Assembly: GCA_964187785.1 (NCBI GenBank) | Contig: OZ076409.1 | Span: 79,610,001-79,674,000 of the forward strand | DNA from: Amphiscolops sp. MND2022 | Lineage: Eukaryota | Direction: 5' to 3' | DNA length: 64,000 nt | Part shown: piece by piece, positions 27,515 to 52,597 of the stretch | Layout: the number at the start of each line of letters is the position of its first letter | How positions within the stretch are numbered: the stretch's first letter is position 1 | Translations under genes and position numbers: made by a program | The notes under the pieces: model-generated | What the model was told of the DNA's origin: nothing | Databases searched by the model: none | Seen by the model: the letters and a program-made list of their open reading frames with translations, nothing else

Positions 27515-27531
27515 GCTGCTTCGCTGATTGT

Positions 27532-27551
27532 TCCTGGGTTACGCGGCACCA
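27532..27551 (-). promoter_or_regulatory. Primer-binding site of Bel/Pao element (tRNA-His-like)
   Basis: TGGTGCCGCG starts 5 nt inside the 5' LTR end. TGGTGCCG is complementary to the 3' end of eukaryotic tRNA-His (..CGGCACCA). Confidence 0.7.
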
Positions 27552-27556
27552 ATTGA

Positions 27557-27788
27557 TGTTTCGATCAACTTAAGTTTCTATCTTTGTTCTAGAAACGTGG
27601 GAAAGATTTTACAAAAGTCAAGGTTGAATTGAAATCAACACAATGGAATGATGAGAGTTATGACAAAAGAGTGAATGAAATTTGAAAACCTGCATGAATA
27701 AATGATTCAGCATGTTTATAGTTATTGTGTATAAATTTGATTCGTCGCATGAAAATATGAGTCAATAAAGTACAAGTTCATTAGAACA
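27557..27788 (-). repeat. 5' LTR of Bel/Pao element, outer end shortened
   Basis: Matches the 3' LTR but lacks the terminal 15-17 nt (tttttagggcttcaa). Confidence 0.9.
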
Positions 27789-30720: not shown

Positions 30721-31280
30721 AAAAAGACGAGAACGTCTAAAGTCGTCGCTATATCTAAGGCTCAAAAAGCGCAAAACTTTTTTTAAAAAAACTTGAAATT
30801 TTCGAAAAAATTTTCTTTCGGAAAATGTCGCACACTTTCGGAAAATGTAGAAGGGGGCCCTTTGGGATTTATTAACATATATTTAGTTGCAAAATATCAA
30901 AAAACTTGAAGGGGGGACCCTTTTGGGACATTAAAAAATTTTCGAAAAAAAAGTCGCACAGTGCCGAAAAAAATCCAAAGGTTTCCTTGAAAACCCCTTT
31001 AGGCACGTCCGGTTTTGTAGGTTTCCTTGAAAAAGTAAAAAAGGGGGGACCCTTTACACTCATCCGGTTTTGTAGGCTACATTTAAAAAGTAAAAAAGCC
31101 AAAGGGGGACCCTTCAGTCCCGTCCGGTTTTGTAGGTTACGTTTAAAAAGTAGGAAATCAAAGGGGGGACCCTCTGGAATAACTTAGATGCGTTTCCCGG
31201 GTATTCGTTTAGTTTCCTTCAGTTGAACGCTAACGTTCGTCGCTTCGAATCTGTCTTAAAAAAGAAAAAAAACGAGTGAC
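30721..31280 (+). mobile_element. Helentron-associated-like repeat split by the Gypsy insertion (its 3' end resumes at 50621-50665)
   Basis: Family 5' end (agacgagaacgtctaaagtcg) and ~58-nt internal tandem units (aaaggggggaccc..ccggttttgtagg). The 3' end gactgtaatagtcggac..agcgccgactaaaaa lies on the far side of the LTR element. Confidence 0.72.
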
Positions 31281-32014
31281 TGTAACGACAAGCTCTCACC
31301 ATTGTCGCCGTAACCATAAGAGCAGGAGGAACACATGGCATGGGTATTTGCCCGGGACAGGCGCCCATGGCCATGAGTCCATTTTGCCTCCTTCGGGTAA
31401 GAAATGTCCCGTCAGAGGAGGATTCCGCTTCTTAAGAAGTGCTCGCCGGCCTGATCCAGTCTGTAATTGCTAACAGTAGCGCGCATTACGCTTTTTCTTC
31501 GGAACCAACGCTTAGATAGCCTTTAAAAAATGCAAGTGGTGGAAAGGAAAAATCAAGTTTTTTAGAAGTTACACAGGAAATCGAAATGAGTAGCTCACGA
31601 GCTGTTACAACAAGAAAATACGAAAATTACTACATATTTAGCACTTTTGAGGCAGCAATTAGCCGAGGACACAAGCACGGATGCTTGGTCAAGCCAATTG
31701 ACTCATTTTCGGTAATCACAGCGTCTTGTAACGCTTCGCTGAAGAAAGCACTGGCTAGAACAAAGTTCAGTCCGTTTTGACAGAAATTTGAGTCTTTTTC
31801 TGACAGCGGCCGTGTTTTTCTGCAGTCTTCTCGTTCGGTTGGGGTCTGCCCGGAGTCTTTTGCTCAAATTCTCTTCAATTCTGTGGGCAGGTACTTGAAT
31901 AAAGACACGCTGCCGTCCAGCGGAATATGACTTTTCAGTAGAGGGGATATAGTCCCTTGAACGAAATTTTCATCGAAATTTTCGAAATCGTGTACTCGAT
32001 AGGTAATCGCTACA
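31281..32014 (-). repeat. 3' LTR of Gypsy element
   Basis: TG...CA termini; differs from 49887-50620 at only 2 positions found by eye. Adjacent purine-rich GGGGAGTGTA (32015-32024) is a candidate PPT. Confidence 0.95.
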
Positions 32015-32158
32015 TACACTCCCCGGGGTCTAGTCTTGACGTCCCCGTCAAGTGTGGGTTGGCATCATCGAGTCTTTACCCAGGGTCATCTATGTCCCAC
32101 TGAGGAGGTAGAGTGCACATCAAGTAGCGCTGGGCAGTTCATTGGGACGTCGTCAAGT

Positions 32159-32352
32159 TGGCCTCGTGGAAGTGTTTTTGACCCAGCGTTGCTGCATTTT
32201 GATCAAATCAATACAACTTCGTATACAAATCTTATACGGCAAGGTTACTTTGTTTTGGAGTATGGCCTCGTGGAAGTGTTTTTGACCCAGCGTTGCTGCA
32301 TTTTGATCAAATCAATACAACTTCGTATACAAATCTTATACGGCAAGGTTAC
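32159..32352. repeat. Two identical 90-bp direct repeats (32159-32248, 32263-32352) in the Gypsy 3' UTR
   Basis: tggcctcgtggaagtg...cggcaaggttac is repeated with a 14-nt spacer. Confidence 0.92.
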
Positions 32353-33138
32353 AATTACTTTTTGTAGCCTGTCGTGAGCAATTCAGGCGTTAAAATTTCT
32401 TTTCGGCCTTTCATACAAAAAAATTTTTTATCGCCGTTAGTGTTAAAACTTGTTTTAAGGTCAACGACCATCACATGACAGTTCAAAATTTATTTTCCGA
32501 AGCTCGGGAGCTTCGCACTGCTTGGCGTTTGATAAAAGTTCTTTTGATAAGCAGTTGCCATAAAATCAACCAATAAGTACGGTCAATTTAAAATTTCTTT
32601 TGCGAGACTTACTCTCAATCCTATCAGGTAACTCAAAGAAAAAACAATGGTCGAGGTCCATCAATCTTTTTATTCTATCCATTTCTCATCTCTCTCCTTT
32701 TGTTTCCTTTTCCTTCATTTTTTTCCTTCTGTCTTTTTCGACAATAGCAACAGTGTGAACAATAACTAGTAACTAAAAGGGTGTAATAGCACCGAAAATT
32801 CAGAGCACGGAGTGCGCACAGCGCATCCATAAGGTAGCATAAGGTAGCTTGAAAAAGCACTAACTGCAAACACAAATTGCAAATTGAATATTGCATTTAA
32901 CTAAGGCAAGGCAAAGGCGTAGTTTTATGGTTGGGTTGCCGGTCCCAAAACGGAATAATGAGGAGGATGAAGCCCGGGGGCTTCATCTCCACTTGGAGGT
33001 TTTTACCCATGACCAATTGGCACTTCCAAAATCAAAGTTTAGCAACAACAGTGGTTGAAACCATGAGGTTTCGCAAAGGTTCATTTAGCACAGGACTATT
33101 GAAGTTTAAAACAGAATGGCAATAATGTTAGGTTTGTT

Positions 33139-36100
33139 TTACTGGGTGGCGGAGAAGTGACGCGCTCTGGGGGAGACGTCGGCTTTCGGTTGTGGTTCGG
33201 ACAGGGATCCTCTTCGCACATTTCCTTCTCGCAGGACTGGCCTTGGTTCGGCGCTGGCAGTTTCATGGGTCCTGGGAGTCGTGTTTGAGCCACTAGGGCC
33301 ATTTTCTGCAGCTACGGGAGTTGAGACTTCTGGCGAATGTTCTTGCGCTGCATTGGCTGAGCCGCTAATATTGGCAGAACTTGTGGTCGACGTGGAGGTT
33401 GGGATCTGCACATCCAATCTACTGGCATTAAACAGGTGTGGTAGATCTAGCGGTCTATTGCGGGTGGCAATGGGTCGTTTCTGCTTGGCACTGAGTTTCG
33501 GGCGTAGATCAGGTCGGCCCCAGAGCCCGCAGGCTCTGGACCAGTTGTCCCTGTTTTCATGTTCTATAATTTGCCTGGAGGCTTCCCATTCGGGTCCGAG
33601 GGGATCACTCAGCAGTTCCATGACATGGTAGCAGGTCTCCGCTGGCATGTCGCTTCCCATAGTGACCCTCGCCTCTGGATTCCAAACAGGCATTGTCTGT
33701 GGAGGGATGATCAAGCCTTTTAGGCGCCCTTGGCGTTCCTCCAGGGTCCTTGACATCCAAAACGCCTAGTTTGTAGTGATCGCGATAGGCGTACTGCTCA
33801 TTAAAGCCTTTCTCAACCATGCTGATTGGCTTTGCCCGGGCATAGCCGATGGGTCCTCGCCAGTACCTGGCTGGAAGCTTGATCATCTGAAAATTATACC
33901 CCTGGTTTGTGTGACCGCCCATGGCTTGTACGCATTCGGTCACGTACTTCCTGAGGTGTGCGAAACTCCAATTGAATCGCTGTGGGATTCCATGGTGATC
34001 TAGGGGCGAATTGTACCAATTCAGCGGGCCGTATTCGCGAGGTAAAGGGCACGCCTTCTTTGTCCGGGCTTTGAGAATGCCGGCCAGGTTTTCGTCCTGC
34101 TGCGTTCCGTTCTTTATGGTGGTATACATGCGGGGTATTAGCAGGAACAGCCCGCGTTCAAGCATCTGCTGATAGTTGTACGGTTTTACATTCTTCAGAA
34201 AAGTCAGGATGGATACTGTTGGTGTCTCCCAGGCGAGTCGCAGAGGCTTGGTGGGATAGCGAAGTATCCCGGTTGGGCCAAATATCGGAGTTAGCACGGG
34301 TGCTAACACCGGTACAAGGTCTTCGACTTCAGCCAAAGTGAAATCTGCCAGCTGGTTAGGTGTCAGAAATCCAGCTACCTCGGTCACCAGCTGACGTCCG
34401 TCATATAATGGTTGGTGCTTATCTACGCCCACGAAAAGTCCCGAGGCAAAGACCAGACTGCAGTATATCCAGTGATATAACGAAGTTGTCATGCGCTCCA
34501 GGTGAGCGGGATAATCCTGAGCGTCTTTTCGTTGTAGCAGCTTGGCTAAGGCGGTGAGGCCTGAGATATTGCCTCGCGCAATCACTAAATACGAAAATAG
34601 CCATTCCAGATTACACTCAGTAACCAGGTCGGTCAATATCATCATTGGGCCAGCTACGAAGCGTTTCTGCCCGAAAGTGAGCATCAGTGCAAAGAGTTCG
34701 TTTACTTGCATGGTACCGATAATCTTGCTGATTTCGATCAACCAGTGCTCGTCTAAGTCGAACTCAACTCGATTAACATCGGGACTCCAACCCAATCCCA
34801 AACAGATGGCAAATTGGTCGGTTGACATCCCAAGTTCTTTTGCAATGTCTGCTACGTTGGTAGTTTGCAGCCGCTGGTACCAAGCGTCGTAGGTGCTGCT
34901 GAAGGCTTGGATTTCAGCCTGAGTCTCGCTCGTCAATTTTGCAGCAATATACCTCATTCCCACTGATAATTGGTCAATAAGGAGGTCCTTGGCAAATTGA
35001 ACTCGCGGGATGGCTCGTTCCACTTCTCGGTCGCTGGGGATTTTGCTCATTATGGCAGTGACTTCCGCAAGATCAATTTTAATGCAAGTCTTTCCACCGG
35101 AGGAGCGCGCGCGCTCTATCCAGTTATTCAGGCGGATTGCCTCACATTCAGCCGTACTAGGTTCTGGGACTCGCCTTTCTCCGTTGTTGTTGAATACTAA
35201 CAAGCCCATACGAGTGCCGTGATCAAAATAGATGGCATCATCGATTGTCAGCTGCGCGTTCCCTGTCTTTTCCACTGACTGTAGCACTTTAGACACTGAG
35301 GCAACATACCCCATGTAGGAAAGCCAGGAGGGACGAAAGTCGTTGGAGCTGATCCGCATATTGGGCGCGCAGATCGCAAAGTCTATTTCTCTACATTTGC
35401 AAATTTCTGTTACCATGTAGATAAATCTCTGCAAGGCGGGAGGCCACTGGCAGAATCCTGGGGGTGTCACAAATAAGACTGGCACGTTGAGTTTATCCTT
35501 TAGGATATTTTGGGCTTTTTCCATGGCTCGGGCCACATTCAGTGCTGCGTTGCGTACTGTTGTTCGCTGTGCTGGAGTTGGATTTATGATTTCAACGTTC
35601 GCGATCTGGGCCATTAGTCCTTCACAGGCCATGTGATCGAAAACGTTACTGATGATCACTCTGCGTGGGGGTGGCTCTTTGAAGGTCCCCGTCATCTCGG
35701 GGTCAAACATGGTGACCAACACTTCAGCCATCTCGGGGATACGTGACAGCGGTAGAGTGAAAACCATCACGTCTGACAGCACATTGTCAATGGGGATATT
35801 TTTGAGGAAGGTCGAGTCTATAAGTTAGGCGAAGCGCGCACGCTGCAACCTTTCTTTTGGCATTGGTAGCTGGGCTTCGAGGTCACGGGCGTACCGTGCG
35901 TTGACCTCGAAGGTCTCTCCAGCATTGAGGAAGTATCGGTCAGCGAATTGCCCACGAAGGTCAATGTTGAGGGCGTCTAAGTAGTTGTCTTCTACGTTTG
36001 GCAGCATATTCATTGCCTTCCCTAGCCATGGCGGCTCATTGGTAGGGGTGTGGTCGGGGCGAATTGGACGATTCATGAATACAGGTACATTCGCCTTCTT

Positions 36101-37510
36101 CAATTTCGCATGCTCTTCGTCATTCGGAGGACACATGTTCTTTTCAAGCAGTCATTCGGGTGATACAATAACTGCCGATTCCCAGATACGTCGGGAGTCC
36201 TTGGTGATCAGCGTGCCCTTCGTGTTTTGCATTGGACTCAGGTACGTCGGTTGCTTTGTAAAGGTCCTCTTAGTTGGGTGTTGAATTGCCTGTTTGCGGA
36301 GTGGGGTTCCAGTTGGACCACTGTTGGTTATTTTCAATCCTGGGTAATCACCCATTATGTCCTTGACAGTTCGCTGAGATTCAGGGGTGCCTTGATAACC
36401 CACAGTTTGCTCCGTTTGTGGCTGTCTTGATGTAGAAGGCTTAGGAGTCGCTCGTTGAGCCAGCGACTCGCGTGTTGTAGACTGCGTGGATGGTGGCTGC
36501 GGCAGTCCTTGTTGTTCGCCTGTTGCGTTTGGTTGTGGCTGGGGTGAGGGAAGCACGGATGCTTCCGACACTTTTGATTTTGTTTGGTTTGGCGTTTTGG
36601 AGGTTGTGGCCTTCTCGTTGGAGATCTTTTTGTCGGGTGTTGGCTTGCTCGAGGGGCTGTCACGGGCAGTTAGTGGTTGTTGAGCACTCTTTTTTGTTGG
36701 AGAAGGGTCATTGCGTTTTCTGGAGGCAGGGCGGCTCTCTCCTCCCCCCTTTTGAGAAGAGCGGGAAGGCGAACGACTGCGCTCTACAGTCACGGTGCGG
36801 GAGTGTCCTGGCTGTTCAGACTGAGGATTGACGTGAGGAATAGTGATGGCATCTTGACTTGTTTGGGTCGAAGTGACGTTTTCGTTGCGAATAGTGACAG
36901 TGGGCAGAGCAATTCGGCGTAGTTCAGGCCAACACTGCTCCATGGATTGCATGAAATCAGCGTAATTAGGGTTGATAGCTACTGCTTGCAGTGCTGAGAT
37001 AACTGCTTGTTCTGCCATTGGTTGATTGGGCAAGTTAGGTACTGTAGGAGCAGAAGTGCGCGCACGCACTACTGTTTGTGGCGTTGATGCAGGAGGTGGC
37101 GGTGGAGGTGGAGGCGGGCAAGAAGGGATCTGTAGAGATCTGGTCTGATGGACTCCGCCATTCGCAGGACTGTATGAGATCGCTGCACGATCATCCGTAA
37201 AGTGATGTGTGAGATCATGGCCGTGCCACACTCCATCTTGATATGTCATGGATCGTTGGAACCCAGGAAAGCCTGAAGTAATAGATATCGTCAGCATAGG
37301 GGCTTGCACTTGTGACTCCATCTGGGCTATGATTGCCGCCACCCCGGCAACTGTAGCTGGCGACAGACCTTGGTCGAGTCTGTCTCGAATAAAAGCAATT
37401 TGTGGGGTACGCTGGACACGCGCAGTGTCGTAAACGCGTTGCCCCAAGGCAGGAGAGTCATCTGAAGACCTTGGAGGGACGTTGTTGCTTCCATCGTTAC
37501 CTTGGTTCAT
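33139..37510 (-). pseudogene. Gypsy accessory ORF2 (~1,450 aa reconstructed): Pro/Ser/Gln-rich disordered N-terminus, SGNH/GDSL-like domain, large unknown helical region
   Basis: ORFs 37510-36152, 36136-35825 and 35782-33605 share one frame, separated by single stops (36154 TGA, 35827 TAA). A 1-nt shift near 33760 leads into 33756-33139. SGNH-like blocks lie at ~35273-35845. Confidence 0.8.
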
Positions 37511-37723
37511 GACGGAAATTCTGAAAGAGTGCAGGTCGATTGTAGCACACTTGATAGTAGGGTAACACCATAGGTCATTTTAAGGGTAATACCAAGGAAA
37601 GTAATAGGATATCACAAATTAACAATGAAGGAAAAGGTAACGTATTAGTTTCAAGTAAACTCCGTGTCGATTCACTGAACTTAATCGAGCGGACAAAACA
37701 AAAAAAAGGAAAAACAAAAAGTT

Positions 37724-39790
37724 CTACGGAAAGCTAGCGACGCTTGCAATAGATACGTAAACGCGATCGTGAAGAACGACGGTCAGGGGCGTGTCAGCGA
37801 ATACGTCCATCAAACAGGTATAAAAGTCGAAAAGATTACGTATTGGGCGCTCAGGATCAATGATGGCAAAGTGTACTTCTATCGCCTCTAAGCGCTCGAG
37901 TAACGTTTTCAAATGATCAAGACATCCAAAGAGAATATCAGCGAGCATAGGGCAGCGAGGTCTAGCTCGTGTGATTAAAAGGTGGATAGTCTGAGGTTGG
38001 CCGTCTATCAAAGATGTGGGTAGCGTCACAATATTGCCAACCTCCGGTCGAAGTTGAAAGATTGCATCTGCACCATGCTCACGAATGACGTAACGAAGAG
38101 CGGCAGAATTAGTCTCTAGGTTTGCGGGACAACATAAAACAATGTGATGGGGAGTCTGCAGGAAGTCCGTATTGGCATACTGCACATAGTCAACCAATTG
38201 AGGTCTCACGGCTCCATGGTATACTAACTCTCGTCCGGGGTCTTTGGAGAGAGCATCGTCACATGTGTTCGGAAGGAGGCCTTTAATGGCGCCCAAGTCT
38301 TGCCACACAGATCGCGGCAACGATTGATTATCAATGTTAGCCCTGGACCATGTATCCAGTGCGTGCAGGGCTGATTGGAGTGATACAGGACTAGGAAATG
38401 AGTGTGTCCATTCGTCCAGGAATCGGATTCGTGAAAAGTTCGATAAGACTGCTATGATAAGTTCCAGCCACCATTCAAACTTAATTTTACCACGATATAG
38501 GTCTATGGTGTGGAAACAAGTGATTCTATCAGGAGAGGCCATCGTCCGCAAACTCTCCAGACAGGTGTTCAAGGTAGTGGGATAAACCAGGTCGGATACT
38601 TGTTTGGCCGTAATTAGTAGCCACCAGTTGCTTGTAGGCTGATAAACGTCTCCTGGTTTTGCGGTGACGTTATACTTGTCATATAAGAGGTCAGCAGGAA
38701 TACAGCGTACCATTTGGATAGGCTCTCGTTCATAGTTGAAAGGACCAAAAGCAATATTTGTAGGCAAAGGGGGAACAGTGATAGGTAAAGTGAATTCCAA
38801 ACCAATAAGATCATAGGTCCACTCCTTGAACCTTGGGCACGGGGCCTTTGCTATCGTAGAATCTTTCATTTTGGATAGGATATAGTCCACGGTATATGGA
38901 GTGTCGCTGCGTTGTAGCCCAGTATAAGTCTTCTCGGCTCGAATAACCAAACGGTCAACCGTGCCGCTTGGAAGCGATTTCTCTTGTTCACGTGCTAGCA
39001 GGACTCCCTGGGTTTAATTGGGAAGCCCGCGTGGACCATGTAGTTACATTCGCAGTCTCGTAGGCCACATGTTCCGCAACGATATCTGGGAATACGATTG
39101 CGTCGCAGTCAATAGCGAGCGTTGGTTGATTCTGACGGTGCTGCTTGATCTGAGGTAACCGCTGCGCTAGGGGCAGAAGAGTCAGTGTCCACAGATGGAG
39201 TGCGACGAACACGGGTAGAGATGTTAGGTCTGGCGTGTGTTGTACGAGGAGGTCTTCCTCTGGGACGGCCTCTTTTGCGAGCGCCTCTAATAGCACCTCT
39301 CTGTTGGTGGCCACGTGGCAGCGAGGCTCGCGGCCTCGCTCTGCCTGGCGGACGTCCCTGCGGTCCATGCCCTCTAGGAGCATTGGAGAGTTTCGTGGTA
39401 GTAGCTGCGTTGTTGTTGGTGGGAACTGTCGCAGGGGGAATAGATCCCTTTTCGTCATTGGTCATTGGTGTTTCAGCACCGTTGTCGTCTAAGGTTGGGT
39501 TGAGAACATTGTCATCGATTAGGGGCCAAATGGGAAAGTTACTCAACATATCCGTAAGAGATGGATTTGTCAATAATGGGGCGGATGTACCGGTCAGAGA
39601 GGTGCCGGCACTTTCGGTGGGTGCGTGGATAGTAGGATTCGGGGCCATGTCCAAGACGTCGGGCACTGCTTCATTCTCTGAGAATAGAGCCTCCATAGCA
39701 GGCAGTGGTGATATTGGTATTTCGGGAATAGGCGCAGGTTCATCCACATGTGATGACAAGATAGCACTCTCATCGGGATTAGCCTGAACA
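37724..39790 (-). pseudogene. C-terminal extension of Gypsy Pol: low-complexity linker, AT-hook, CxxC-x4-CxC motif, two OARD1/TARG1 (Poa1p)-like macrodomains
   Basis: Joined to integrase via a frameshift at ~39790, a TGA at 39111 and a frameshift at ~39005. Motifs RKRGRPRGRPPR and CGTCGLRDCEC. Two repeats align by eye to the OARD1 fold. Confidence 0.72.
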
Positions 39791-42700
39791 CTCGACAGGA
39801 GTAATATCAGAACGTTCGTCGTCAGACTCAGTCGAAGAATAGTCAAATTTTTGATAATGTAGGCGGCTGCCACCTGCGCGCATGCGTGTGCGCAACCGTG
39901 TGTCCATCCAATGTCTTTGTCGAGAAGGCAAAGAGGCATTACTGGCTTCTGAAATTGGTTCCTCCGCACGATAAGAAGGTTGCGAAGCATCGTCTCTCAC
40001 TTCATCGTGGGATTGTTCTGGATCAGGGTCCATGATGATAGCAACCTCGCCGTTATGCGCAGGAACAGCTGCCCATTCTGTTGGACCACCACGGTGCGGT
40101 TTCAATCGTTCGAAATGTACTTTCTGACCAGTGTCAAGTATGTAGACGCGTCCCTCTTGTAGTACTCGTGCTACTTTGTGAGGACCACGCCATGCTCTCA
40201 TCAATTTAGGAGATCCTTTTTGGGGAATGTATCGGCAGAATACCCAAACAGGTTCGCCCACTTCATAGGCTTTAGCACGAATTGCTCGGTCGTACTTCAA
40301 CTTTTGTCGCTGCTGGGCTTGATGCGTGTTACGACGGACTAAGTCATGAATCTCTTGCTGTCGAGCCAGCACATGTTCCACATAGGCTTCGTGTGATTCG
40401 AATGACTGAGTTGCAAATTCGGGATACAAGAAAGTCAGGGGTATAGCTTTTTCCATGCCTCTGGTCAGCATATACGGGGAGAACCCAGTAGTGGCATGAC
40501 ATGTGGTGTTGTATGCACCCATGACTTCATCTAAATACTGGTCCCAATCACGCATTCGTCTAGAGCAGAATACACGCAGTAGGGTGAGTAACGTTCGGTT
40601 TTGTCGCTCTACCAACCCTTGAGTCCTGGGGTGGCCAGCAGTTGAGGTTACTTTGGTCACTTGGGCGGCTTTCATAAACTCAGCAGATACTGCCGCGGTG
40701 AAGTTGGGAGCATTGTCTGACTGCATTCTCGTCGGCGTTCCATGGCGGGCAAACCATTTCTGCAACAACAATTTTGAAGTGGTCGCTGCATCATACTCAT
40801 CGTAGTTGCACGGTACAGCTTCTGCGAGCTTAGAGAAATGATCGATAATAACCAAGATCCCTGTGTTACCATCATCAGAGGGACAAATTTTCATGTGGTC
40901 ATATTGGACTAGCTCGTTAAAATAGCCGCTTTGGATATTTTTCAAGTGAAAGCGTACATCACCAGGCTTGTCACGTACTTGTTGACAAGTGATACATTGG
41001 CTGACGTATTGTCCAATGGTGCGGCGGATGCCTGGCCAAGTGTGGCGCTCTTGAATTCTGGCCAAGACTTTCGCGATGCCCTGATGTCCCATCGCGTCGT
41101 GGGCCTTGAACAATATCTCATGCTGATACAATTGGGGCATCACTATCATGCAGGGGCGTTCATGCAAAGCTCTTTGACTTTTGGAGTACTTTACACACAA
41201 AACCCCGTTGGCGTTTACCAGTAGGAGGTTCTTCTTCTGTTTGTGGTAGTTTTTGGCAAAGGCACGTACATTTTCCGGAAAGATGTCATGATCTATTGAT
41301 TCTTGCATTACCAATTTCTTGATAGCCAAGACGTGGACGTCACGGTTTTGTGCTAGTAGTAGATCTTTCAACCCATGGACTGTGTTAGCATGTTCATGCA
41401 ATTCCATCGATATGCTGTTTACCACAAACGCGGCTTGTTTTACGTGCTCTGGTGCAGTGCTAGTTGCTTGCTTTTCCGTCAGTGGATAAGTGGTTCTTGA
41501 TGGTACGTTAGCAGCATGCGTGGGGAGCAAATAGTCTCGTTGATATTCCTCGGTCAGTTCCAACCAATCCTCAGGATACTCTGGATAAAGTTCGGCAGGC
41601 AGTGCCAATTCTGGTTTTGGCAATGTAGGTAGGGGCGCTCTCATGGCTTCGTCGCGCATGATCGCACTTCGTTTGCTTTGTCCGCTCCTTCGCGTGGGAG
41701 CGGCAACTGTGGTTTCGGGTGAACTTTGGCTAGCCAACCTCTGCAAGTGTGCAGGCAATTCTGGGTGATTTGGTATCACACGTCCGTGGACATCAAACCA
41801 TGGGGCTAGCGGGAGTTTGTTGTATTCCTCTTGTGATAGGAAATCCCATTTGTCTGCAATTGCGGGTAAACCCTTTAATTGCTTTTCGTGTTTTTTGTAA
41901 TCATTTGTTCGTTTGCTAAGACCATCAGCATTGCGATGTTGCGTTCTGGGTCGGTGCTCAATACCGAAGTGATATTTTTCAAGAGCCATAATCCATCGAC
42001 CGATAATCGCCTGATCCATCGAATATGTCTTTAGCCAGGATAGGGCCTGATTGTCGACCCTCAGTGTGAATTTTCGTGGACAGAGATAGCTGTGGTTTTT
42101 CAAGATGAAATAGTATGCAGCGTACATTTCCAGTTTTGGGGCTCCATACTTTGCTTGCGTAGAGGTTAACTTTTTGCTTCCGAATACAATCGGTCGCAAT
42201 TTGCGACTCTCAGGTGGTCCTTGCCATTGGTGAAGAATACCTGATATAGCTACACCACTAGCATCGGTGTCAAGAACAAATTCGCTTTCAGTGTCGGGTT
42301 GCGCCAGAGCAGTGGCTTCCATTAGTGCCACTTTGATGCTGTTAAAGGCTCGCTGCTGCTCCTCCCCCCATAAAAATGAAGAGCCTGCGCCCGTCATCGC
42401 ATGTAAAGGGGCAACTAGCTTTGCATGCCATGGGATAAAATCCCGATAGTAGTTGGCAAAACCCAAGAAACTTTGCAATTCAGTTTTGGTTCGCGGGATA
42501 TCCCAATCTTTCAGCTTGGCGACAGCTTTTGGATCTGGCTTGATACCATCTGCGGATACAACTCGGCCCAAATATTTGATCTCCGATTTCATAAAATCAC
42601 ACTTGGAGACTCTCATTTTGAAGCCGGCCTCACGCAGGCATTGGAATACTTCGCGTAGTCTATCCATGTGATCCTCGATGGTCTCGGTAGCAATCACAAT

Positions 42701-43531
42701 GTCATCGATATAGGCCATAACCATGCTTCCTTCGCGGTTCACTATTCTTTGTAGCGCTCGCGCTATTGCCCGTTGAAATGTTGCTGATGCGTTACACATA
42801 CCAAAAGGCATACGCCGCCACTCAAATAACCCAAGTTCACAAGCGAAGGCAGTCTTTTGACGATCGGCTTTTCGGACAGGAATTTGCCAGAATGCCCATG
42901 CCAAGTCAATACTAGTATAGATTTTGGCTTTGCCCAATCGGGATAGACTCTCATCGATACGTGGCAAGGGATAAGCGTCTTTGATGGTCACTTCATTAAG
43001 TGGTCGAAAGTCACAACAGAATCGCAATTCACCACTCTTCTTTTTGACCATAACAATTCCACTCGCCCAAGGGGATAGGGAAGGTTGTATCAATCCCAAA
43101 GCTAGCAAGTCACGGACTTCTTGGTTAGCACGTTCTGCCTTGTCAGGCGACATTCGTCTTGCACCTTCGCGGTGGGGTATAGCCCCTGGCTCTACTTCCA
43201 CCGGGTGCTTAGCGATTTTACATTTGCCAATGTCGGCTTTGAATTTCATAAACAAATCATCAAATTCGTTCAAAAGTTTACTAAGCGTGTCGCTGGCGGT
43301 CGATCCCCACAAACCGCGCACCTCGTCGAGTTGTGCTTCCGGGCCCGGTATCGGAGCCATTAGCGCCGGATCGGTTCGTTTTTTTATTTCGCGCTCGGAC
43401 AAGCCTAGTTCTGACGGTTCGGTAGAGGACAAAAACTCAAATTCAGATGAAGAACTATATTCAGAAGAAGAATCAAGGTTCATCTGTTCGTAAACTTTAC
43501 AAACATAATTTGCATTTGACTGCAGTTTCAC
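39779..43531 (-). CDS. Gypsy Pol core: reverse transcriptase, RNase H, integrase
   Basis: Motifs SPWASGIV, RFCCDFRPLN, MPFGMCNA, YIDDIVI, FLGFANYYR, DTDAS, VDNQAL, NADGLS, the HHCC zinc finger, QYDH..SDNA..GLVERQNRTL and WRGPH. Confidence 0.95.
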   Translation of the reverse strand: MKLQSNANYVCKVYEQMNLDSSSEYSSSSEFEFLSSTEPSELGLSEREIKKRTDPALMAPIPGPEAQLDEVRGLWGSTASDTLSKLLNEFDDLFMKFKADIGKCKIAKHPVEVEPGAIPHREGARRMSPDKAERANQEVRDLLALGLIQPSLSPWASGIVMVKKKSGELRFCCDFRPLNEVTIKDAYPLPRIDESLSRLGKAKIYTSIDLAWAFWQIPVRKADRQKTAFACELGLFEWRRMPFGMCNASATFQRAIARALQRIVNREGSMVMAYIDDIVIATETIEDHMDRLREVFQCLREAGFKMRVSKCDFMKSEIKYLGRVVSADGIKPDPKAVAKLKDWDIPRTKTELQSFLGFANYYRDFIPWHAKLVAPLHAMTGAGSSFLWGEEQQRAFNSIKVALMEATALAQPDTESEFVLDTDASGVAISGILHQWQGPPESRKLRPIVFGSKKLTSTQAKYGAPKLEMYAAYYFILKNHSYLCPRKFTLRVDNQALSWLKTYSMDQAIIGRWIMALEKYHFGIEHRPRTQHRNADGLSKRTNDYKKHEKQLKGLPAIADKWDFLSQEEYNKLPLAPWFDVHGRVIPNHPELPAHLQRLASQSSPETTVAAPTRRSGQSKRSAIMRDEAMRAPLPTLPKPELALPAELYPEYPEDWLELTEEYQRDYLLPTHAANVPSRTTYPLTEKQATSTAPEHVKQAAFVVNSISMELHEHANTVHGLKDLLLAQNRDVHVLAIKKLVMQESIDHDIFPENVRAFAKNYHKQKKNLLLVNANGVLCVKYSKSQRALHERPCMIVMPQLYQHEILFKAHDAMGHQGIAKVLARIQERHTWPGIRRTIGQYVSQCITCQQVRDKPGDVRFHLKNIQSGYFNELVQYDHMKICPSDDGNTGILVIIDHFSKLAEAVPCNYDEYDAATTSKLLLQKWFARHGTPTRMQSDNAPNFTAAVSAEFMKAAQVTKVTSTAGHPRTQGLVERQNRTLLTLLRVFCSRRMRDWDQYLDEVMGAYNTTCHATTGFSPYMLTRGMEKAIPLTFLYPEFATQSFESHEAYVEHVLARQQEIHDLVRRNTHQAQQRQKLKYDRAIRAKAYEVGEPVWVFCRYIPQKGSPKLMRAWRGPHKVARVLQEGRVYILDTGQKVHFERLKPHRGGPTEWAAVPAHNGEVAIIMDPDPEQSHDEVRDDASQPSYRAEEPISEASNASLPSRQRHWMDTRLRTRMRAGGSRLHYQKFDYSSTESDDERSDITPVECSG

Positions 43532-46500
43532 TTGATTGTCCGGGGAAAATTTGGGGGATGGCTTTATGAATCATCGTCACGGGTACCGCGGTTCCCAAAA
43601 GGGTGCCCTTTTTGATCCGCTGTACGTTGCTGGTGAGATTTCCTAAACTGACGTAAAGGAAGCCAGTTTCCCCCACGGTCGCCACGGTGTCCTCTAAAAA
43701 GATGGCGTTTTTTAACATTCGGTTAGGTGTTTGAAAATTGATTAGCACGGTTCGAAACATGAAAGGTTCTAAGTTGTCTACAAGCAATCTAGCGCGTAGT
43801 ATCGCGCGTTCAAAAGGTTGCAACACTACGTCCTGTGCAATCGCTACCGACGAATTGAGCGATTCGTTACTTACTTGCGTGTGGGCATGGTACCACACCG
43901 GTTCGGAGGGAGCTCGGACAATGACCTTCATCGCGGTTAGATCTACCAAGACTTGATAAGCTCTTAGGAAGTTTCTGCCCAGGAGGAAGTCTTCCACTCC
44001 CATAGCGTCATCAACTACCACGAAGTTAGTTTCTAATTCATAGCCTCCCAATTGGAATTTGACTTTCTCCGCTAGACCAAAAGTTTAGATCGTTTTCCCA
44101 TTCGCGGCATATAAGTCAATACCATAAGGTCGTAAGAGTGTGCCAGTGCGCACGGCGACTCGATTGTAGGCTGAGAAGGTGAGGATGGATACTCCTGATC
44201 CAGTGTCTATTAGACCACGTAATGGCACGGGAGCAGCATCGGGAACCACGAATGAAACCACGAGCGACGCACGCTCATCGATTCTCGCTTCACCAATTGG
44301 TTCTTGAGCATCAATGTTATAGCAGCGCAGCTCTTGCGGTCCCAAGCAGATTCCAGGAGGAAACGCGTCAGTAATAATAGTGGCGCCAAAACGCATGTCA
44401 ACACCATCTATGCAGACGTTGACTGGAATCGGAGAATAGGCATGATACGTCGAAGTGACACCTTTCACTTGCCACTCTTCCGGTTGGGGCAGAGTCAATT
44501 GCCGGCAATTCTCGTTTGCGGTTATCTCTTCTATCAGAGCGTCTATGGTGAGTTCTGGGCGGGTTTCTCTCTCAACCGCCAACAGTAGTCGGGCAGACAT
44601 GATAGTGCGTCCCGAGGGATCAAAAGTAGTTGGCTCTGGGTTCGTCTGGATTTGGATTTTGCCACATGTGACGGTAAGGGGCGTCGCCACGTGAGCGGCT
44701 TCAGCAGGGCGTAGCATGAGTACCATTTCACTGTCACTCATTGTTTGAGAAGCAGATGGCTGTTCAGCCCAGAGGCTGTAGGCCAAATCCTCATGTACTG
44801 GAACATTTTGGCATTGTGATGCAGAGTGTTCGGTCATGCCACAGTTAACACAGAATACGGGGCCAGAACATGCAGAGGCCACATTGTTCTCACACAGGTT
44901 CACTCGCTCTTCGGGTGCAGCGCGAGCCGCGGGTTTCCTTGCTAGGTCTCGATTTGAGCATTCCCTCGCAAAGTGACCTGGTAGTCCACAGTTGAAGCAT
45001 GCTCCTTGGGGAATCACTCTCGCTGGTTGCTGCTGTGCAGGAGCCTGTTTTACCGATGCAGGGCCTGGTGGGGCCATCTGGGGCTTTGCCTCTCGCTGTC
45101 CTTGGTTTGGAGGTAGCACGTTTTGTGGTAGGCCTGGTGCCGGGTGAACCAATTTCCCTGGCACGAAAGGGTGAGGCCTCGATCTCATTGCATACCTTGG
45201 GTCGTAAGGTTTTGACGTGTTTGGGCGATGCCGTTGCAATTGTCTCGTGGTGAATCTCAGGGATTCTACAGTTGGTGGCTCAGTCAAATACGTCTCCGCA
45301 GCGTACACCACGGCCAACTCTTGTCGCAGCGTCGGGTCATTGACGCCATCTATAAAACGTTGCAGGATCTCATAACGACGTGTAGTGATAGGCTCGTCTG
45401 GGAAACCTTGGGTGCGCAGACCTTCCAATGCGTCCAAGAATTGCATCCAATCCTCTTTTTCCTGTTGGACACGAGACATGAAGGTTAGCCTGACGTGCAT
45501 GCGGTTTCCACCGGTTCCAAACCTGCTGGCCAAGAGAGAGAATACCTTGTCGGGCTCGTCTCGTTCAGGTTCAGATTTGTTGATTATATAATTTCTCGCC
45601 TCCCCTTCCAGGTGGTCGATGATAGCCCAGGCTCTGTCGATCTTTGGAGATTTTGCATGCACCCTTTCTAGAAATCGCTTCATCACTGGGAGCCATCCAT
45701 CGACAGAACCATCTTTAGTGCCTTTGTATACCGTAGGGCGGACCCTAGTTTGATCTCGATTAGCAATCAGCGGCGCCAGTTCCTTGGACATGGCCTTGGA
45801 TATTGCCTCGGTAAACCTGAGTTGCTCCGGTGATATAGGCGCTTCTTCAGTGATAGCTGGTGGCGGGATACTGCTGCCTCGCGTTGAGTTGACAGAGTCA
45901 TCGGTGTTCTCGGGGAGAGTCACTTCTCGGCGTCGAGTGCTGCTGGCGCATGGGTTGCCCGGGGGCAATTCGTCGTTCGCGGTTTGGAATTCTGCAGCTG
46001 ATTCTCCCAAAGTTGCATTTGCTGTTTGGAAGGTGCTGGTGACTTCAGTTAGCTCGTTTGTGCGTGTGGGCTCTCGCAGGCCGGTGATACCCATGCTTGA
46101 AGTGTCGATAGTTATCACCTCGCACGTTGGTTCTTTCTTGTGAGTTTTGGTCGTGGGTGGAATATATTTTGTTGATACCACAGACGGGATAAATTTCGTC
46201 GAGGTTGATGCGGCCTCTCCATTTGAGACCAGAGTTTGTGGCAAAGGCGCGTACCTGGCCAAGTGCTGTTTAGAGCCAGATGGGTTTGTTGCAGTCGTCA
46301 CACTCTTTTTTGGCTTGAGGGAGACGCTTTTCATGGGTTTTGGCAGTGACACATCAGTGTCTTGCAGCAACTCTTTGATAGTGTTGCTTGCTGGTGCGGG
46401 TCGAGGTTGGATATTTTTCAACATGGTGCCCATTGCTTGTATCTGTGAACATACCTCTTGCAATTGAGCTTCCATGCGCACCTCTCTTTCGGTCACCATG

Positions 46501-47417
46501 TCCTTCATTTCGGCCATTCGATAACCCATGGCATCCATTCGGGCGGCCTGAATTTCATGTCCTTGCGCTTGTCGCTCAGTTGATGTTCGCAGTTCAGTTT
46601 GCACGGCTTCTATTTCCTCCATTATTGATTGGTGCTCTCTATCGCACCTTGCCTTGCGCTCAGACAGTTGTGAAGCAGCTTGCTTCACGCCTATCTGAGC
46701 ATCTAATAGAGCTTTGCGCGCTTTCGCTGCTTCATGTACGGCTCGATATGCCGAAGATCGGGCAGATGCAGCTTTTGATGAGGGTGAGGATGAGCGCGAG
46801 TCGCCATGAGGTCCTGTAGTGCCAGTCTGTGCTAGTAGAGCTGGAGGCCGTACTTGCTTACCCTTCCCAGATGCTCAGGGAGCCGTAGCTTCTTGAAGAC
46901 GTGCCCTGGCATAATTCATACCCCCGACATACGACATTTGTTGCAATATCTCTGCTGTGTTCGCAGTGCTCTCGCTTGCCATGCTGGGAGCCTTGAGTTG
47001 TCCAGTGGCATTCAAGCAACTCATTTCAGCTTCTTCCTCAGCGTTTGTCCTGTTGGAGTTGGGCCATGTTCCTGCTTCGTCAGTACCGAAAGGTGTGACG
47101 GCTACTTTGGTCAGTTCTTGTAACCATTTGGACGTGTGCGCCTGACTTCCTGTTTCGTCGGCTGAACCTCCGATATCATCGGTAGTCCTGGCGATCGGCT
47201 TGGCCTGATACTTCTCCGATGCGTCGTCTGACATAGGGTCTGAAAAATCGGGTTCCATAACGAAACTGTCATCAGTTGGCCAATCTTCCTCCCTGGGGTC
47301 TGAGGTTAGGTCTGATATTGCACTGAGATTTGTCTCTCACCCCGTTGGGTCTGGTGTTTTCGATGCTTCAGCGCGTCGCAACGGGTCCTTCCTCCCCCTT
47401 TTGAAAGATTAGAGCAT
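43497..47417 (-). pseudogene. Gypsy Gag-protease (coiled coil, capsid-like region, two CCHC knuckles, protease, dUTPase-like domain) with in-frame stops
   Basis: One frame from ATG 47417 with stops at 47411, 47339, 46877 and 44087. Motifs YKG..DG.VDGWL, CFNCGLPGHFAREC, CVNCGMTEHSASQC and LIDTGSGVSIL...FLLGRNFL. Frameshift to the RT frame near 43530. Confidence 0.88.
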
Positions 47418-49852
47418 CGCCGGGTGTTCGTGCGGCTTAATGTTCTCGTTATAGAATTCCAAAGGTTACGCAAACTGTTAGTCTTCATGATTTCACACGT
47501 CTCGAAAAAGTCAAAAATCGATCTAGGGGTCGTACCGGCGTGAAACTTACACAGCGCGTTGATACCGTGGTGTGGGGCCGGAAACCGTGCGTTTGGGGCT
47601 TGCGGAACAGCTAATTCGCAAACAATCGAGTTTTTAGACAATTTTTGAGTTTTTCAGATTTCTTTATAAATGACTAAGATGCCTCGAGCGCAACGTCTAA
47701 TCGTCGGAGACACTTGAAAATTGGCCACCTGACCTTGTGGTAGGTGTACTACACGATAGCAAAATCAAATCTAAGCTAAGGTTCTTATTTCAAGATTCAG
47801 GCTGATTCGGACGTTCGGTACCCTTAGTCACCAAGATACATCAATTTTCATGCTTATTTCAAGATTGTGCTTTACTGAAAAAAAGCTAGCGGGCTCAAAA
47901 TTTGCAAAACAACGTAGTATCTGGTACAAATGATAGAAATGAACGGCAATTCAACCTCGTTTTTTAATTAAGGTACTCGGATCACTCAGGAAAAAATTGA
48001 AAAATTACCCTCTAGGCCCAACTTTTTGAGTGGTACGTTTTTCTATTTTCTCACCAAGTACCGGTTGGATTGACACGAAACTTTGTAGCTACAGTCGATG
48101 AGCGTGCCCAATGCCGGTGAAACCATCAAATGAAAGCGCGGACGCTTATTTGAGGTTCCGACCTTACTTGGACAACACTTATGAAAAAAACACAATTTTG
48201 GACTACTTTTTTCACAAATTGGCTAAGAGGGTCACCTCAAAAAGTGGTAGGGCTGAAAAAAATGGGACCTACGTGTTGCCCCACTACTCGTAGTACTAGG
48301 ATAAACCCTCGATTAGGTGTGCCCGTTAAACACGAGGCACCGACAGTCCGTCAGTTTTGGAATATTTCGGCAGTTTTACAGTCCCCTGAAGTTGAAACGT
48401 TAGAGAACTTTTTTCGACTTTGGTGAAAGTTACGTCCACCAAATTTTCGGCACTAGCGTTATTTTTAGTGGTGGTTATGAAAATGCAACCACCTTTTGGC
48501 TAAGGTCCAAGAATCAATGACCCGACCTCAGAGATAGCTCAGAGATAGTCCGGATTTTAGGAAAATGGAAGTTTTTCAGTGCATTTTTCTACTTTTCTCA
48601 GCACTGAAAAGGAATTTTGGGATGCGGTCTTCACTGTAGATCGTTAAATTTACTGAATAAACTGAAAATAATAGCCCGGGGGCTGCTCTAAGCGTAAAAG
48701 TGTTCGTCAATAGTCAAATTGGGTTTCTTCTAAGAGTACTATAGAAAAACCTCAAAATCACAGTTCTCGTAACTTTTTTCAAGAAGTAGTGGTTATAATT
48801 ACCAAAATGGGTATTGTTGGGTACCGGCAGGTGTACCCCAACCTAATTGCAACCATACGGGGGTGTTTAAAAGCTTCTATACAAGTTCCCCCACAAATTC
48901 AAAGTGCTAAAAATGTTCAGTCTTCCAAAAACGGGGTTTTTTCCTCACAAAATTTATACTAAGTGCCTTTTCGGGCAACTTTGAGCAGTTCGTCGCGTTT
49001 TTTGCGAACTCATTAGAGTCCTGAGCTACTTTTATTTAATTTCTGCAGGTGTGTGGCTAGCACCAAGAGCGCTCGCGCTCATGTAGGTGTTTCGCCTCAA
49101 AATGGCCAAATTTGGCACTTTTCGTCGAAAATACGTGAAAAAACGCACTTTTTTCGCACAAAACAGGTGCAAAAGCACACACATAGTTACAGAAGGCTCG
49201 TAAAAACATTGGCAAGTGGTCGTACACAAAATTTTGAGCAACCCAAAAAATTTTTTCAACCTGACTCAAAAATATTATACAACCCGGACTGACGAGTCGT
49301 GTCTTCTCGTTCTTTTTGCTCATCACCCAGAACAGCTAGAGACAAACGGGTTGCACCGTTAGACACGTCAGCATTTGTAGTACGTCTCCACCAAATTTCA
49401 TTCCTCTAGGTTGCCTGTACGAGAAATGTGATCGGTGAGTCGTAAAACTCGTTTCGGCAGATTGTAAGATTCGTCTGAGCAAGGATCGTCCTCTTCTCAA
49501 CACTCACTTCATTGGTCATAAAAAGCTGAAAAAGGCTAGAAAACACCTGCTAACACTTCTAGCAGCCTTCCAACGGCTTGCTAGACCAATTTTATGAGTG
49601 ACCCGTTAAGAGGGTAGGCTATTTCGATCGTTACCTGTCAACTACTGAAAAAGCATGAAAATCACAACATACAGCGCTTTTTTACAAGATTTACCTTTAT
49701 CCACCGGGCTTGAAGTCTTCAATAACACACACAGGGTAAAAACGTGGAAAAACTCTGCTTCTCTCTTCTTTCCATCAGAGTCGGGTCGTACTTGGCGTCA
49801 ATCACCAGAGGGTCGGCTATTTTAAAACCATTAAGGGAAGCACTTCGAAGCG

Positions 49853-49870
49853 ATCCCTCTGTGGTCGCCA
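49853..49870 (-). promoter_or_regulatory. Primer-binding site of Gypsy element (tRNA-Arg-like)
   Basis: The 18-nt TGGCGACCACAGAGGGAT resembles the complement of the 3' end of eukaryotic tRNA-Arg(UCG) (..ATCCCT..GTGGTCGCCA). Confidence 0.7.
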
Positions 49871-49886
49871 TAAAATGTGTTCTCCA

Positions 49887-50620
49887 TGTTACGACAAGCT
49901 CTCACCATTGTCGCCGTAACCATAAGAGCAGGAGGAACACATGGCATGGGTATTTGCCCGGGACAGGCGCCCATGGCCATGAGTCCATTTTGCCTCCTTC
50001 GGGTAAGAAATGTCCCGTCAGAGGAGGATTCCGCTTCTTAAGAAGTGCTCGCCGGCCTGATCCAGTCTGTAATTGCTAACAGTAGCGCGCATTACGCTTT
50101 TTCTTCGGAACCAACGCTTAGATAGCCTTTAAAAAATGCAAGTGGTGGAAAGGAAAAATCAAGTTTTTTAGAAGTTACACAGGAAATCGAAATGAGTAGC
50201 TCACGAGCTGTTACAACAAGAAAATACGAAAATTACTACATAATTAGCACTTTTGAGGCAGCAATTAGCCGAGGACACAAGCACGGATGCTTGGTCAAGC
50301 CAATTGACTCATTTTCGGTAATCACAGCGTCTTGTAACGCTTCGCTGAAGAAAGCACTGGCTAGAACAAAGTTCAGTCCGTTTTGACAGAAATTTGAGTC
50401 TTTTTCTGACAGCGGCCGTGTTTTTCTGCAGTCTTCTCGTTCGGTTGGGGTCTGCCCGGAGTCTTTTGCTCAAATTCTCTTCAATTCTGTGGGCAGGTAC
50501 TTGAATAAAGACACGCTGCCGTCCAGCGGAATATGACTTTTCAGTAGAGGGGATATAGTCCCTTGAACGAAATTTTCATCGAAATTTTCGAAATCGTGTA
50601 CTCGATAGGTAATCGCTACA
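49887..50620 (-). repeat. 5' LTR of Gypsy element (may extend to 49876)
   Basis: Direct repeat of 31281-32014. Confidence 0.95.
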
Positions 50621-52597
50621 GACTGTAATAGTCGGACTTTTTTTAATAAAAGCGCCGACTAAAAACAATTCCTAGCCTTCCTGAGTGTTCCCTCATACAT
50701 CACCTGAAAATATTGACATGGCTAAAATACATTAATTTAGATTTTATCGGCCAATGTAATCTAGCATATGTCATATCTACTTGATTAATGAGAATAGCAC
50801 ATGAATAACAAGCGTTTCTCAAGAGAGAGCAGTTTTTGCAGTTCAATTTGAAGAAGTCTATGTTAGTGTTGAATCTAGACCCCTGTTTATAATAAGGACC
50901 ACATGCAGCTAGAAGGACCTAGGTCATGACTATCTGGGTCACTGCGTCGCCTATTTTAGCAGTTAAATAATGACCCGCTAAACTGTAGCATTTTCAACGA
51001 AACAAAGAAATATACCTACTGTGCAAGCAGGTGTTTGTCAGTGATATTTGCTAGCTGGGTTGATAGGAGAAAGATGTGTTTTTTGTTAAACAGAAAAACT
51101 CTCAAGTTGGAAGATTTCTGAAGCGCAAAATCTTTATATCTCCCAAAGAATCGGTTTCAAAATCGTTTATTTTGTGGAAAATGGAATCTTAGCAGCTATA
51201 TGATTGCGGTAAAATCTTTTTCGATACGGCTGGGACAAGTGGTCATTTCAACACTGAAACTAAATTTTAAAATTGGCGAGTACAAAGAAACTTATTCTGA
51301 ATTTTGAAGTATGAAGTTTTTTCACAAATTCCAATTCGTTTCGATTGAGTTTTGTGAAGTCTAGTCTCAAAAATATTTCTAGTAAATTCCGTAACAGTTT
51401 CCTACAAACTTTCCCCAGAAAAAGAAAAGGAATCAAACTTAAGCAGCTGTTGCTGAAGAAATTTTTCTAAGGAAAAAACTTGAAACAAAAATGTTTCCCT
51501 GTTCCAGCAAGTGGTTTTTAATGTTAGCAAGTCGCTTTCTTCTGGGATAAAACAAAGGGAATATTTTTGATGCATTTATTGATTTATCTCTCATAATTCT
51601 GAAGCTTATATTTTTCAATAACTTTCCCCAAACAGTTCGGACGTATTTACAGATTTCATTTTTTTTCAGAATTTAATTGTTGGACAATTTTATTAACAAG
51701 AACTTCATTGGTGGAAAGTTTATCAGAATTTCCAATGATTTAACCAATTTAATTGAACCAATTTCGAACGGCTCTAGAAAGAATCGAAAATCAAAAAACA
51801 CACAGCCAACTTATTTATATATATCACTTTCAACATTCGATTCGAAGGGTTGATATAAATAACAATCAATGACGATTTCAGCATTGCCTTAAAGCAACGT
51901 TTAAAAAGCAAAGAACGAAGTCTGAAATTTAGTCAGAAAACTCGTAACTTTATCTGGGAAACCCATGATACGTAGATCTCCAGGAGTTGTTTGAATATGA
52001 TCTTTCTGATTCGCTGTGAATTTTACCTCATGAATAAATCAACTTTTACCCAACGTTCGATTTAAATCGCGCCTTGCACCGGTTTTCGCGTAACAGCCCA
52101 ACTTTGGGGGCCCAAATTTATATCGATCTCGGAAAAAAAACGTCTAACGAAATGTCATTCTCTTTTTATGCCTAAATACATTGAATTTTAAAACCTTTTT
52201 CCTGAATACATTAATCACGCACCCCAAAAGCAGCAAGCGAGGATTTTTCAACTTTCAGTGTTCAATGGCCAGTTTTTATGTAGCTCACTGCTCAGTTCAC
52301 ATTATTGCATATCTTGAGGCATTTATCAGTCAACTTAATGGCTGATAGTTTCCATTCTTAGCGTTAATATTGACTTCCGAAAAAAAATTGACAAATCAAA
52401 AACTTTTTATGAATCATTTTGACATAAGTTTTGCAATATTGGAAGGTCAGAAATTTCAAAACAACGTCTCAAATGAGAAAGTGAAATCAAATTCGGAGTT
52501 TTCGGACTGATTTTTATAGTAAATCATTTTTATTGTAATTAATTGCCTGATTTCAGAGAAGAATTGGTGGTTGATATAATGTGCTTTTTCTGCATCG

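Follow-up and report, generated by a model that had tools for sequence, protein, structure and literature searches.

The DNA analysed here, hereafter the window, is a 64,000-nucleotide stretch of the genome of Amphiscolops sp. MND2022 (GenBank assembly GCA_964187785.1, contig OZ076409.1, positions 79,610,001 to 79,674,000), and coordinates are counted from its first letter. On the minus strand, positions 31281-50620 hold a broken copy of a 19,340-bp Ty3/Gypsy-type long terminal repeat (LTR) element, arranged as gag, protease, reverse transcriptase (RT), RNase H, integrase, a long linker, an open reading frame (ORF) for two macro-like domains, and a second large ORF. In intact copies, the macro ORF (37724-39013, minus strand, 429 aa) closes Gag-Pol at its C-terminus. 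It comprises domain 1 (38414-38758), a shortened TARG1-type macro fold in which the loop 1/helix 1 region is deleted, a conserved linker (38189-38413) that is helical by secondary structure prediction, and domain 2 (37766-38188), a full-length TARG1-type macro fold, all on the minus strand. An earlier reading made from the letters of the window had proposed two tandem TARG1/OARD1-like domains fused downstream of the integrase, and all the peptides it quoted do lie in this single minus-strand frame. Our analysis supports the fold and the fusion, finds both domains under purifying selection, and predicts that neither still binds ADP-ribose.

Profile searches, as well as Foldseek and VIA searches with predicted models, agree on two tandem TARG1/OARD1-type macro folds. 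A Pfam scan of the ORF and 40 homologues recovered no macro family, and a PDB search with the single ORF sequence gave 0 matches. A profile of the 40 homologues matched five PDB sequences at E<=10, all of them TARG1/OARD1 (best E 0.0044) and through domain 2 only. TARG1 was also the top match when the two domains were modelled together with AlphaFold (pLDDT 74.5, pTM 0.47), with a Foldseek E of 1.1e-8 and a VIA Z of 15.7 (rmsd 4.2, 143 aligned) over domain 2; next in VIA Z for this domain came DarG (14.7), BT1257 (13.2) and Poa1p (12.2), with the next macro class at 10.8. Modelled alone (pLDDT 74.8, pTM 0.70), domain 1 gave a best Foldseek E of 3e-4, its eight matches at E<=0.001 all being TARG1, and a VIA Z to TARG1 of 10.5 (rmsd 3.0, 114-117 aligned) that ties with BT1257, DarG and DarTG. 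It is about 25 residues shorter than TARG1, and the gaps in the profile alignment fall in the loop 1/helix 1 region. Domain 2 aligned profile to profile with an intact TARG1 domain from another Gypsy element (described below) at a probability of 99.5 and an E of 8e-23. Identity to TARG1 is low, at 13-17%. In the ESM Atlas, homologue P0009 had scores below 0.9 throughout, and its 0.81 to the ThsA_Macro and Macro clusters is a lead only. A profile search of 1.84 billion representatives returned 415 matches at E<=0.001, of which the best 150 were all fragments of this family.

The predicted models thus place both domains in the TARG1/ALC1-like macrodomain class, for which DarG (5M3I), Poa1p (6LFQ), BT1257 (2AFC) and SCO6735 were compared alongside human TARG1. 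The latter, also known as OARD1 or C6orf130 (4J5S, 4J5R, 2LGR), is the top structural and profile match and shares the fold and the order of strands and helices. The window domains differ from this class in being tandem, acidic rather than basic, and part of a retroelement polyprotein, and in having Lys84/Asp125 and the glycine loops replaced. A weak fold match (Z 6-7) was also obtained to the SARS-unique domain of coronavirus nsp3, but the window domains are much closer to TARG1. The SARS-unique domain likewise belongs to a viral polyprotein and is a tandem of degenerate macro-like domains, from a different macro lineage.

The fusion to Pol does not hold for the window copy itself, where the ORF is parted from Pol by a stop (39109-39111) and by changes of frame, one near 39803 and one near 39010, but it does hold in sister copies with intact frames. 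From the 4,393 candidates of a genome search, 114 copies were scored (97-100% identity). A frame of at least 1,140 aa, enough to reach the integrase core, is present in 73 of these 114, and 23 have a frame of at least 3,200 aa, with the macro ORF forming the end of a Gag-Pol frame of 3,200-3,330 residues. The joining of ORF and Pol in intact copies, on which the sequence-only reading depended, is therefore what we found. Each of four natural copies analysed whole is one 3,310-aa frame running from gag through the end of domain 2. Subfamilies with 83%, 59%, 53% and ~42% tail identity in the same genome share the fusion, frames of 3,192-3,303 aa occur in other subfamilies at 42-53% tail identity, and both domains are retained in frame in every subfamily examined.

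Both domains lack the marks of an active TARG1, namely the Lys84/Asp125 dyad and the glycine-rich phosphate loop. Residues were numbered after PMC9411070, and their register was set by a HMMER alignment to 4J5R and a profile alignment to the intact Gypsy TARG1, which agree without gaps over loop 2. Counts were made over 79 sequences, the denominators being the homologues with a residue at that position. In domain 2, the Lys84 position (37967-37969) is Arg in 68/70, the Gly121 position is Asp in 61/63, the Gly123 position is Glu in 58/61, and the Asp125 position is Pro (40/61) or Ser (18/61); the loop 1 glycine position is Ala in 71/73, and in the window copy Asp-Pro-Glu-Arg-Pro replaces the glycine loop at 37844-37861 (loop 2). 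Domain 1 has Ala (51/72) or Ser (16/72) at the Lys84 position and Gly at the Asp125 position, and its loop 2 (38489-38506) has no glycines at the 121 and 123 positions, the latter being Tyr in 68/74. By comparison, 39 intact TARG1-like domains have Lys84 in 38, Gly123 in 37 and Asp125 in all 39. The replacement of the glycine loops in both domains, as first noticed by eye, is thus borne out by alignments over homologues, and the catalytic residues are lost as well. Among distant members of the family at 31-34% identity on short contigs (P0151, P0315-P0317, P0139), P0151 retains Lys at the Lys84 position, but its loop is blocked. Of its 3,445 candidates in G000, 135 were scored and none of these exceeded 34%, and the family is therefore likely present in another genome.

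The change seen in domain 2 has a laboratory counterpart. The G123E mutation of human TARG1 abolishes ADP-ribose binding, with RNA binding staying like that of the wild type (PMC5928194). Because the glycine loops are replaced, with Glu at the Gly123 position of domain 2, we predict from the alignments that both domains have lost ADP-ribose binding. The domains have also turned slightly acidic, with a median isoelectric point of 5.9 and 6.0 versus 9.1 for intact TARG1-like domains, and a median net charge of -2 and -3 versus +5 for intact TARG1, which fits protein binding and speaks against simple nucleic-acid binding.

Both domains are under purifying selection. The ratio of nonsynonymous to synonymous substitutions (dN/dS), a check that the sequence-only reading had suggested, was estimated by the Nei-Gojobori method between natural copies with long open frames, in pairs that are not independent; rows C_C1 and F_C13 (wrong frame) were left out, and dS above ~1.5 was taken as saturated. 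The two domains gave 0.02-0.13 across these comparisons. In the window subfamily (10 pairs, dS ~0.16), domain 1 had a dN/dS of 0.13 and domain 2 one of 0.02, while the linker stood at 0.27, RT at 0.09 and the integrase core at 0.01. The corresponding values of the two domains were 0.08 and 0.13 in a second subfamily (2 pairs), and 0.04 and 0.06 between sister subfamilies (28 pairs, with saturated dS); the helical linker between the domains had 0.06-0.20. Between distant subfamilies, the tail is 45-47% identical, versus 68-80% for RT/integrase.

The trees of domain 1 and domain 2 have a matching subfamily order, and the pair has therefore been inherited together. The similarity of the two domains to each other is modest by hhalign (probability 58, E 1e-4). 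Both carry Asp at position 121, a Gly in TARG1, and Arg at position 124, a Leu in TARG1, which suggests that the duplication came after loop 2 changed. Since the tree of the domains is unrooted and contains three long branches, this order of degeneration and then duplication rests on the two shared loop changes and is unproven.

The long linker connecting integrase and macrodomains (39109-39996, minus strand) is acidic and proline-rich, and it is out of the Pol frame in the window copy and in frame in intact copies. It carries RGRP/GRP repeats (39244-39357, minus strand), which are AT-hook-like by the consensus and by one weak Pfam AT_hook match (E 0.2). The repeats are present in 23 of the 24 homologues long enough to show them, and in every subfamily examined. 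Close by, a YxLR motif and a four-cysteine knuckle of the form C-x2-C-x4-C-x-C (39046-39117, minus strand) are interrupted by the stop in the window copy. YxLR and knuckle occur together in every subfamily examined. Among 42 homologues chosen by the cysteine motif alone, 39 have YxLR directly before the knuckle, and Y, L, R and the four cysteines are invariant in 13 of 13 aligned natural copies, rows that were picked by a pattern requiring them. In foamy-virus Gag, Y537, L539 and R540 contact the H2A-H2B acidic patch and steer integration (PMC9040877, PMC12125541). The window family shares the motif, for which binding to H2A-H2B is weakly predicted, but its motif is on the integrase tail rather than on Gag and is followed by the knuckle. 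A 37-aa natural YxLR peptide modelled with host H2A, H2B and zinc scored 0.45, against 0.03 for the best control; the runs had at least 43% of contacts in common, and the partner pLDDT was at least 48. In calibration, the mark was reached by 51/78 solved and 2/108 mismatched pairs, and at <=0.60 it was reached by 5/78 solved pairs only and by all 4 passing mismatches. Peptides lie outside this calibration, and the score may echo memory of the solved foamy-virus complex. The models give weak support for a foamy-virus-like binding of this peptide to the H2A-H2B acidic patch.

The insertion sites of the family are unusual among LTR elements. We examined 25 elements (L121-L160), two of them without a recognisable end, and an exact 3-bp target duplication flanks 21 of the remaining 23 copies, with none longer and the other two without duplication; the chance of this is ~2e-34, assuming 37% GC. 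In the window, the same three bases stand at 31278-31280 and 50621-50623, and one copy each of two other subfamilies also has a 3-bp duplication (L064-L073). Other LTR elements make duplications of 4-6 bp, with Troyka alone making 3 bp (PMC12440569). The window family therefore departs from the 4-6 bp expected of Ty3/Gypsy, and in combining TG...CA ends with a 3-bp duplication it goes against the Troyka-only rule as that source states it. We considered membership in Troyka and rejected it on ends, knuckle, GPY/F and LTR size: Troyka has CG...CG ends, a CX2CX8-10HX4C knuckle, no GPY/F and LTRs of 100-400 bp (PMC12440569), whereas the window element has TG...CA ends, a CX2CX4HX4C knuckle, a GPY/F-type motif, 734-bp LTRs and an internal part of 17.9 kb. 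Its placement in Ty3/Gypsy (Metaviridae) rests on domain order and motifs, namely TG...CA LTRs, the order gag, protease, RT, RNase H and integrase, the GPY/F-type motif and CX2CX4HX4C. Our literature search found no TG...CA elements with 3-bp duplications, though Repbase or the supplement of the Troyka paper may list the family. Annotation tools requiring 4-6 bp are likely to misjudge these elements.

A Macro search of the genome turned up another Gypsy lineage whose Pol has a single, intact TARG1-like domain as its last part (L046-L051; P0267-P0296). Its representative (L049-L051, G000:C12:44814317-44828063) has gag, a pol of 1,925 aa, LTRs of 441 bp and, by eye, a 783-aa env-like frame. As in the window element, the domain lies at the Pol C-terminus behind a long linker with an RY-x-x-R-type motif, but it is single and its catalytic residues are intact. 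The RT and integrase of this lineage and of further families are 22-24% identical to those of the window element, which makes both a shared capture and repeated capture possible. A further family (P0295, P0309) also has an intact TARG1-like domain at the Pol end. In the retroelement polyprotein P0298, the TARG1-like domain stands before RT rather than behind the integrase, a third arrangement.

We tentatively favour, with a confidence a little short of even, the reading that the two domains are non-catalytic and bind proteins, as modules of a tail by which the integrase docks on chromatin. Its functional steps, which we infer, would run as follows. The ancestor would have had one working TARG1 behind the integrase, as the distant Gypsy lineage of the same genome still has; the pocket would then have been blocked and the domain duplicated. 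With the tail remaining on the integrase, the AT-hook-like repeats would grip DNA, the YxLR/Cys motif would anchor in the H2A-H2B acidic patch, and the dead macrodomains would supply a further protein contact, either with chromatin or with the integration complex, for which ADP-ribose cannot compete. A bolder version, which seems doubtful to us, is that this 19-kb clade with TG...CA ends and 3-bp duplications captured an enzyme that erases ADP-ribose, doubled it and made of it a reader blind to ADP-ribose. Together with AT-hooks and a nucleosome anchor resembling that of foamy viruses, this reader would form a novel type of integrase tether, the first counterpart of the chromovirus chromodomain to be built on a macrodomain, and the intact TARG1 of other Gypsy lineages would represent an earlier stage of counter-defence.

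Several points weigh against the proposed docking role. The relative placement of the two domains is not predicted by the model (pTM 0.47), most homologues come from one genome and their counts are not of independent lineages, and the lineage with an intact TARG1 is only 24% identical to the window element in RT and integrase. The chromatin evidence is weak and concerns only the upstream peptide, and the protease of the element may cut the tail from the integrase. The 23 insertion sites share no sequence, and their flanks have a GC content of 0.37, like the surrounding non-coding DNA. The suggestion of an integration-targeting module in the sequence-only reading is accordingly helped, indirectly, by the neighbouring AT-hook-like and YxLR motifs, but these lie outside the macrodomains and no sequence preference appears at the 23 sites. 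The loss of Lys84/Asp125 is by itself no proof of inactivity either, by analogy with SCO6735 (PMC9411070), and residues on the pocket side of domain 2 are near-invariant (Asp252 75/76, Gln255 75/75, Arg318, Asp355/Glu357/Arg358), which makes a new ligand at this site possible.

The last two points lead to the alternative that domain 2 is a ligand site or an enzyme with a remodelled pocket, like SCO6735 within the TARG1/ALC1 class, which we regard as unlikely. The polar residues at pocket-equivalent positions stay near-invariant in homologues down to ~31% identity, the most distant of which, P0151, has Lys at the Lys84 position, and SCO6735 is active without Lys84/Asp125 (PMC9411070, PMC5087735). 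However, SCO6735 has a glycine phosphate loop, and its G128E mutation, matching G123E, lowers or abolishes activity (PMC9411070, PMC5087735); both glycine loops are replaced here, and the mutant state is the natural one. Decidedly unlikely in our view is that the pair binds the RNA or cDNA of the element in a packaging or chaperone role. Domain 2 does have conserved Arg at 276, 280, 291, 318, 358 and 386, and chains of the SARS-unique domain, which binds nucleic acid, are among the fold matches at Z 6-7. TARG1-G123E, blind to ADP-ribose, binds RNA as the wild type does (PMC5928194), but the basic character of intact TARG1 is lost in both domains (net charge -2 and -3 versus +5).

The sequence-only reading had also raised a decoy against host defence based on PARP. 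A decoy or inhibitor would fit the faster divergence of the tail relative to RT/integrase (45-47% versus 68-80% identity), and intact TARG1 in several other retroelement polyproteins suggests that ADP-ribosylation matters to them. An ADP-ribose sponge needs an open pocket, though, and is unlikely because domain 2 has the equivalent of the binding-dead G123E in 58/61 homologues (PMC5928194). With selection purifying rather than diversifying as well, the decoy idea comes out weakened and strikes us as quite improbable, and the one form it could still take is mimicry of the protein surface of a host macrodomain. Still more improbable is that the tail has a structural role in the integration complex, whether by oligomerisation or by bending the target DNA, and that this relates to the 3-bp stagger. 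It would fit the 3-bp duplications, which flank 21/23 copies of the family and single copies from two other subfamilies, but the distance between the cuts is normally determined by the integrase core, and tail and stagger co-occur in one clade only. The 4-6 bp of other LTR elements, Troyka excepted, speak for such a link, and Troyka, with 3-bp duplications and no such tail described in the sections consulted, against it (PMC12440569). That the domains are functionless relics carried in frame is hardly credible: the catalytic residues are gone and similarity to TARG1 is low (13-17%), but a dN/dS of 0.02-0.13 contradicts it, as do the preserved fold and the in-frame retention in all subfamilies examined.

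Captured macrodomains have been described before in LTR retroelements. Fish epsilon-like endogenous retroviruses carry them as additional reading frames (PMC4977317, citing Basta et al. 2009), but these belong to the Retroviridae and not to Gypsy (PMC4977317). The closer parallel in position is with chromoviruses, to which the sequence-only reading had likened the element; in these Gypsy elements, Pol carries a chromodomain at its C-terminus (PMC12440569). An extra folded domain, likely a chromatin tether, ends Pol in both. In the window element, however, the fold is macro and present twice, no chromo family was found in Pfam scans of its Pol end, linker and tail, and the linker is long, with the domains starting ~470 residues past the GPY/F-type motif (40172-40192, minus strand), so that the likeness holds for the Pol C-terminus and not for a place directly behind the integrase. 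Our literature searches on macrodomains in retroelements gave no description of a TARG1-type domain, intact or dead, at a Gypsy integrase C-terminus, and the excerpts of PMC11673190 and PMC4695847 contain nothing on macrodomains in these elements. The insertion sites of retroelements are decided by integrase tails, and only a few domains are known to serve as tethers; a duplicated pseudo-TARG1 maintained by selection would be a new one. It is the natural counterpart of the G123E mutant made in the laboratory and thereby points to a role for the TARG1 fold apart from ADP-ribose chemistry. Since one genome holds both intact and degenerate forms of the domain at the same place in the polyprotein, it can be asked whether ADP-ribosylation acts on retrotransposon integration.

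The other parts of the window copy, all on the minus strand, are those of a Gypsy-type element. The 5' LTR (49887-50620) and 3' LTR (31281-32014) are each 734 bp long, with TG...CA ends and 99.7% identity. Gag and protease (43497-47653; knuckle 44958-44999, protease 44196-44213) are broken by stops and frame changes, and RT, RNase H and integrase with its H2C2 and rve core follow at 39779-43570 (Pfam RVT_1 2e-36, RT_RNaseH, Integrase_H2C2, rve). ORF2 (33139-37579) is broken here. In three natural copies that have it intact, each from a different subfamily, it measures 1,403-1,491 aa and is 25-40% identical from one subfamily to another (L038:3632-8104, L070:215-4504, L071:154-4362). It is not an obvious envelope gene, it had no Pfam or PDB match and no Atlas match of note, and an SGNH-like appearance by eye was not confirmed. 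The priming sites may be unusual, judging from two features common to three subfamilies, a TGGCG motif ~16 bases inside the 5' LTR (49851-49886, minus strand) and a CCCGGGGAG stretch directly before the 3' LTR (32015-32040, minus strand). The 3' untranslated region contains a 104-bp tandem duplication (32159-32352). Elsewhere in the window, a BEL/Pao element (21026-27786, minus strand) has 233-bp LTRs that are 97.9% identical and an open frame of 1,713 aa. In the genome, a histone gene unit of 3.6 kb occurs in long tandem arrays (G000 C4, C33, C67 and others; L096-L120).

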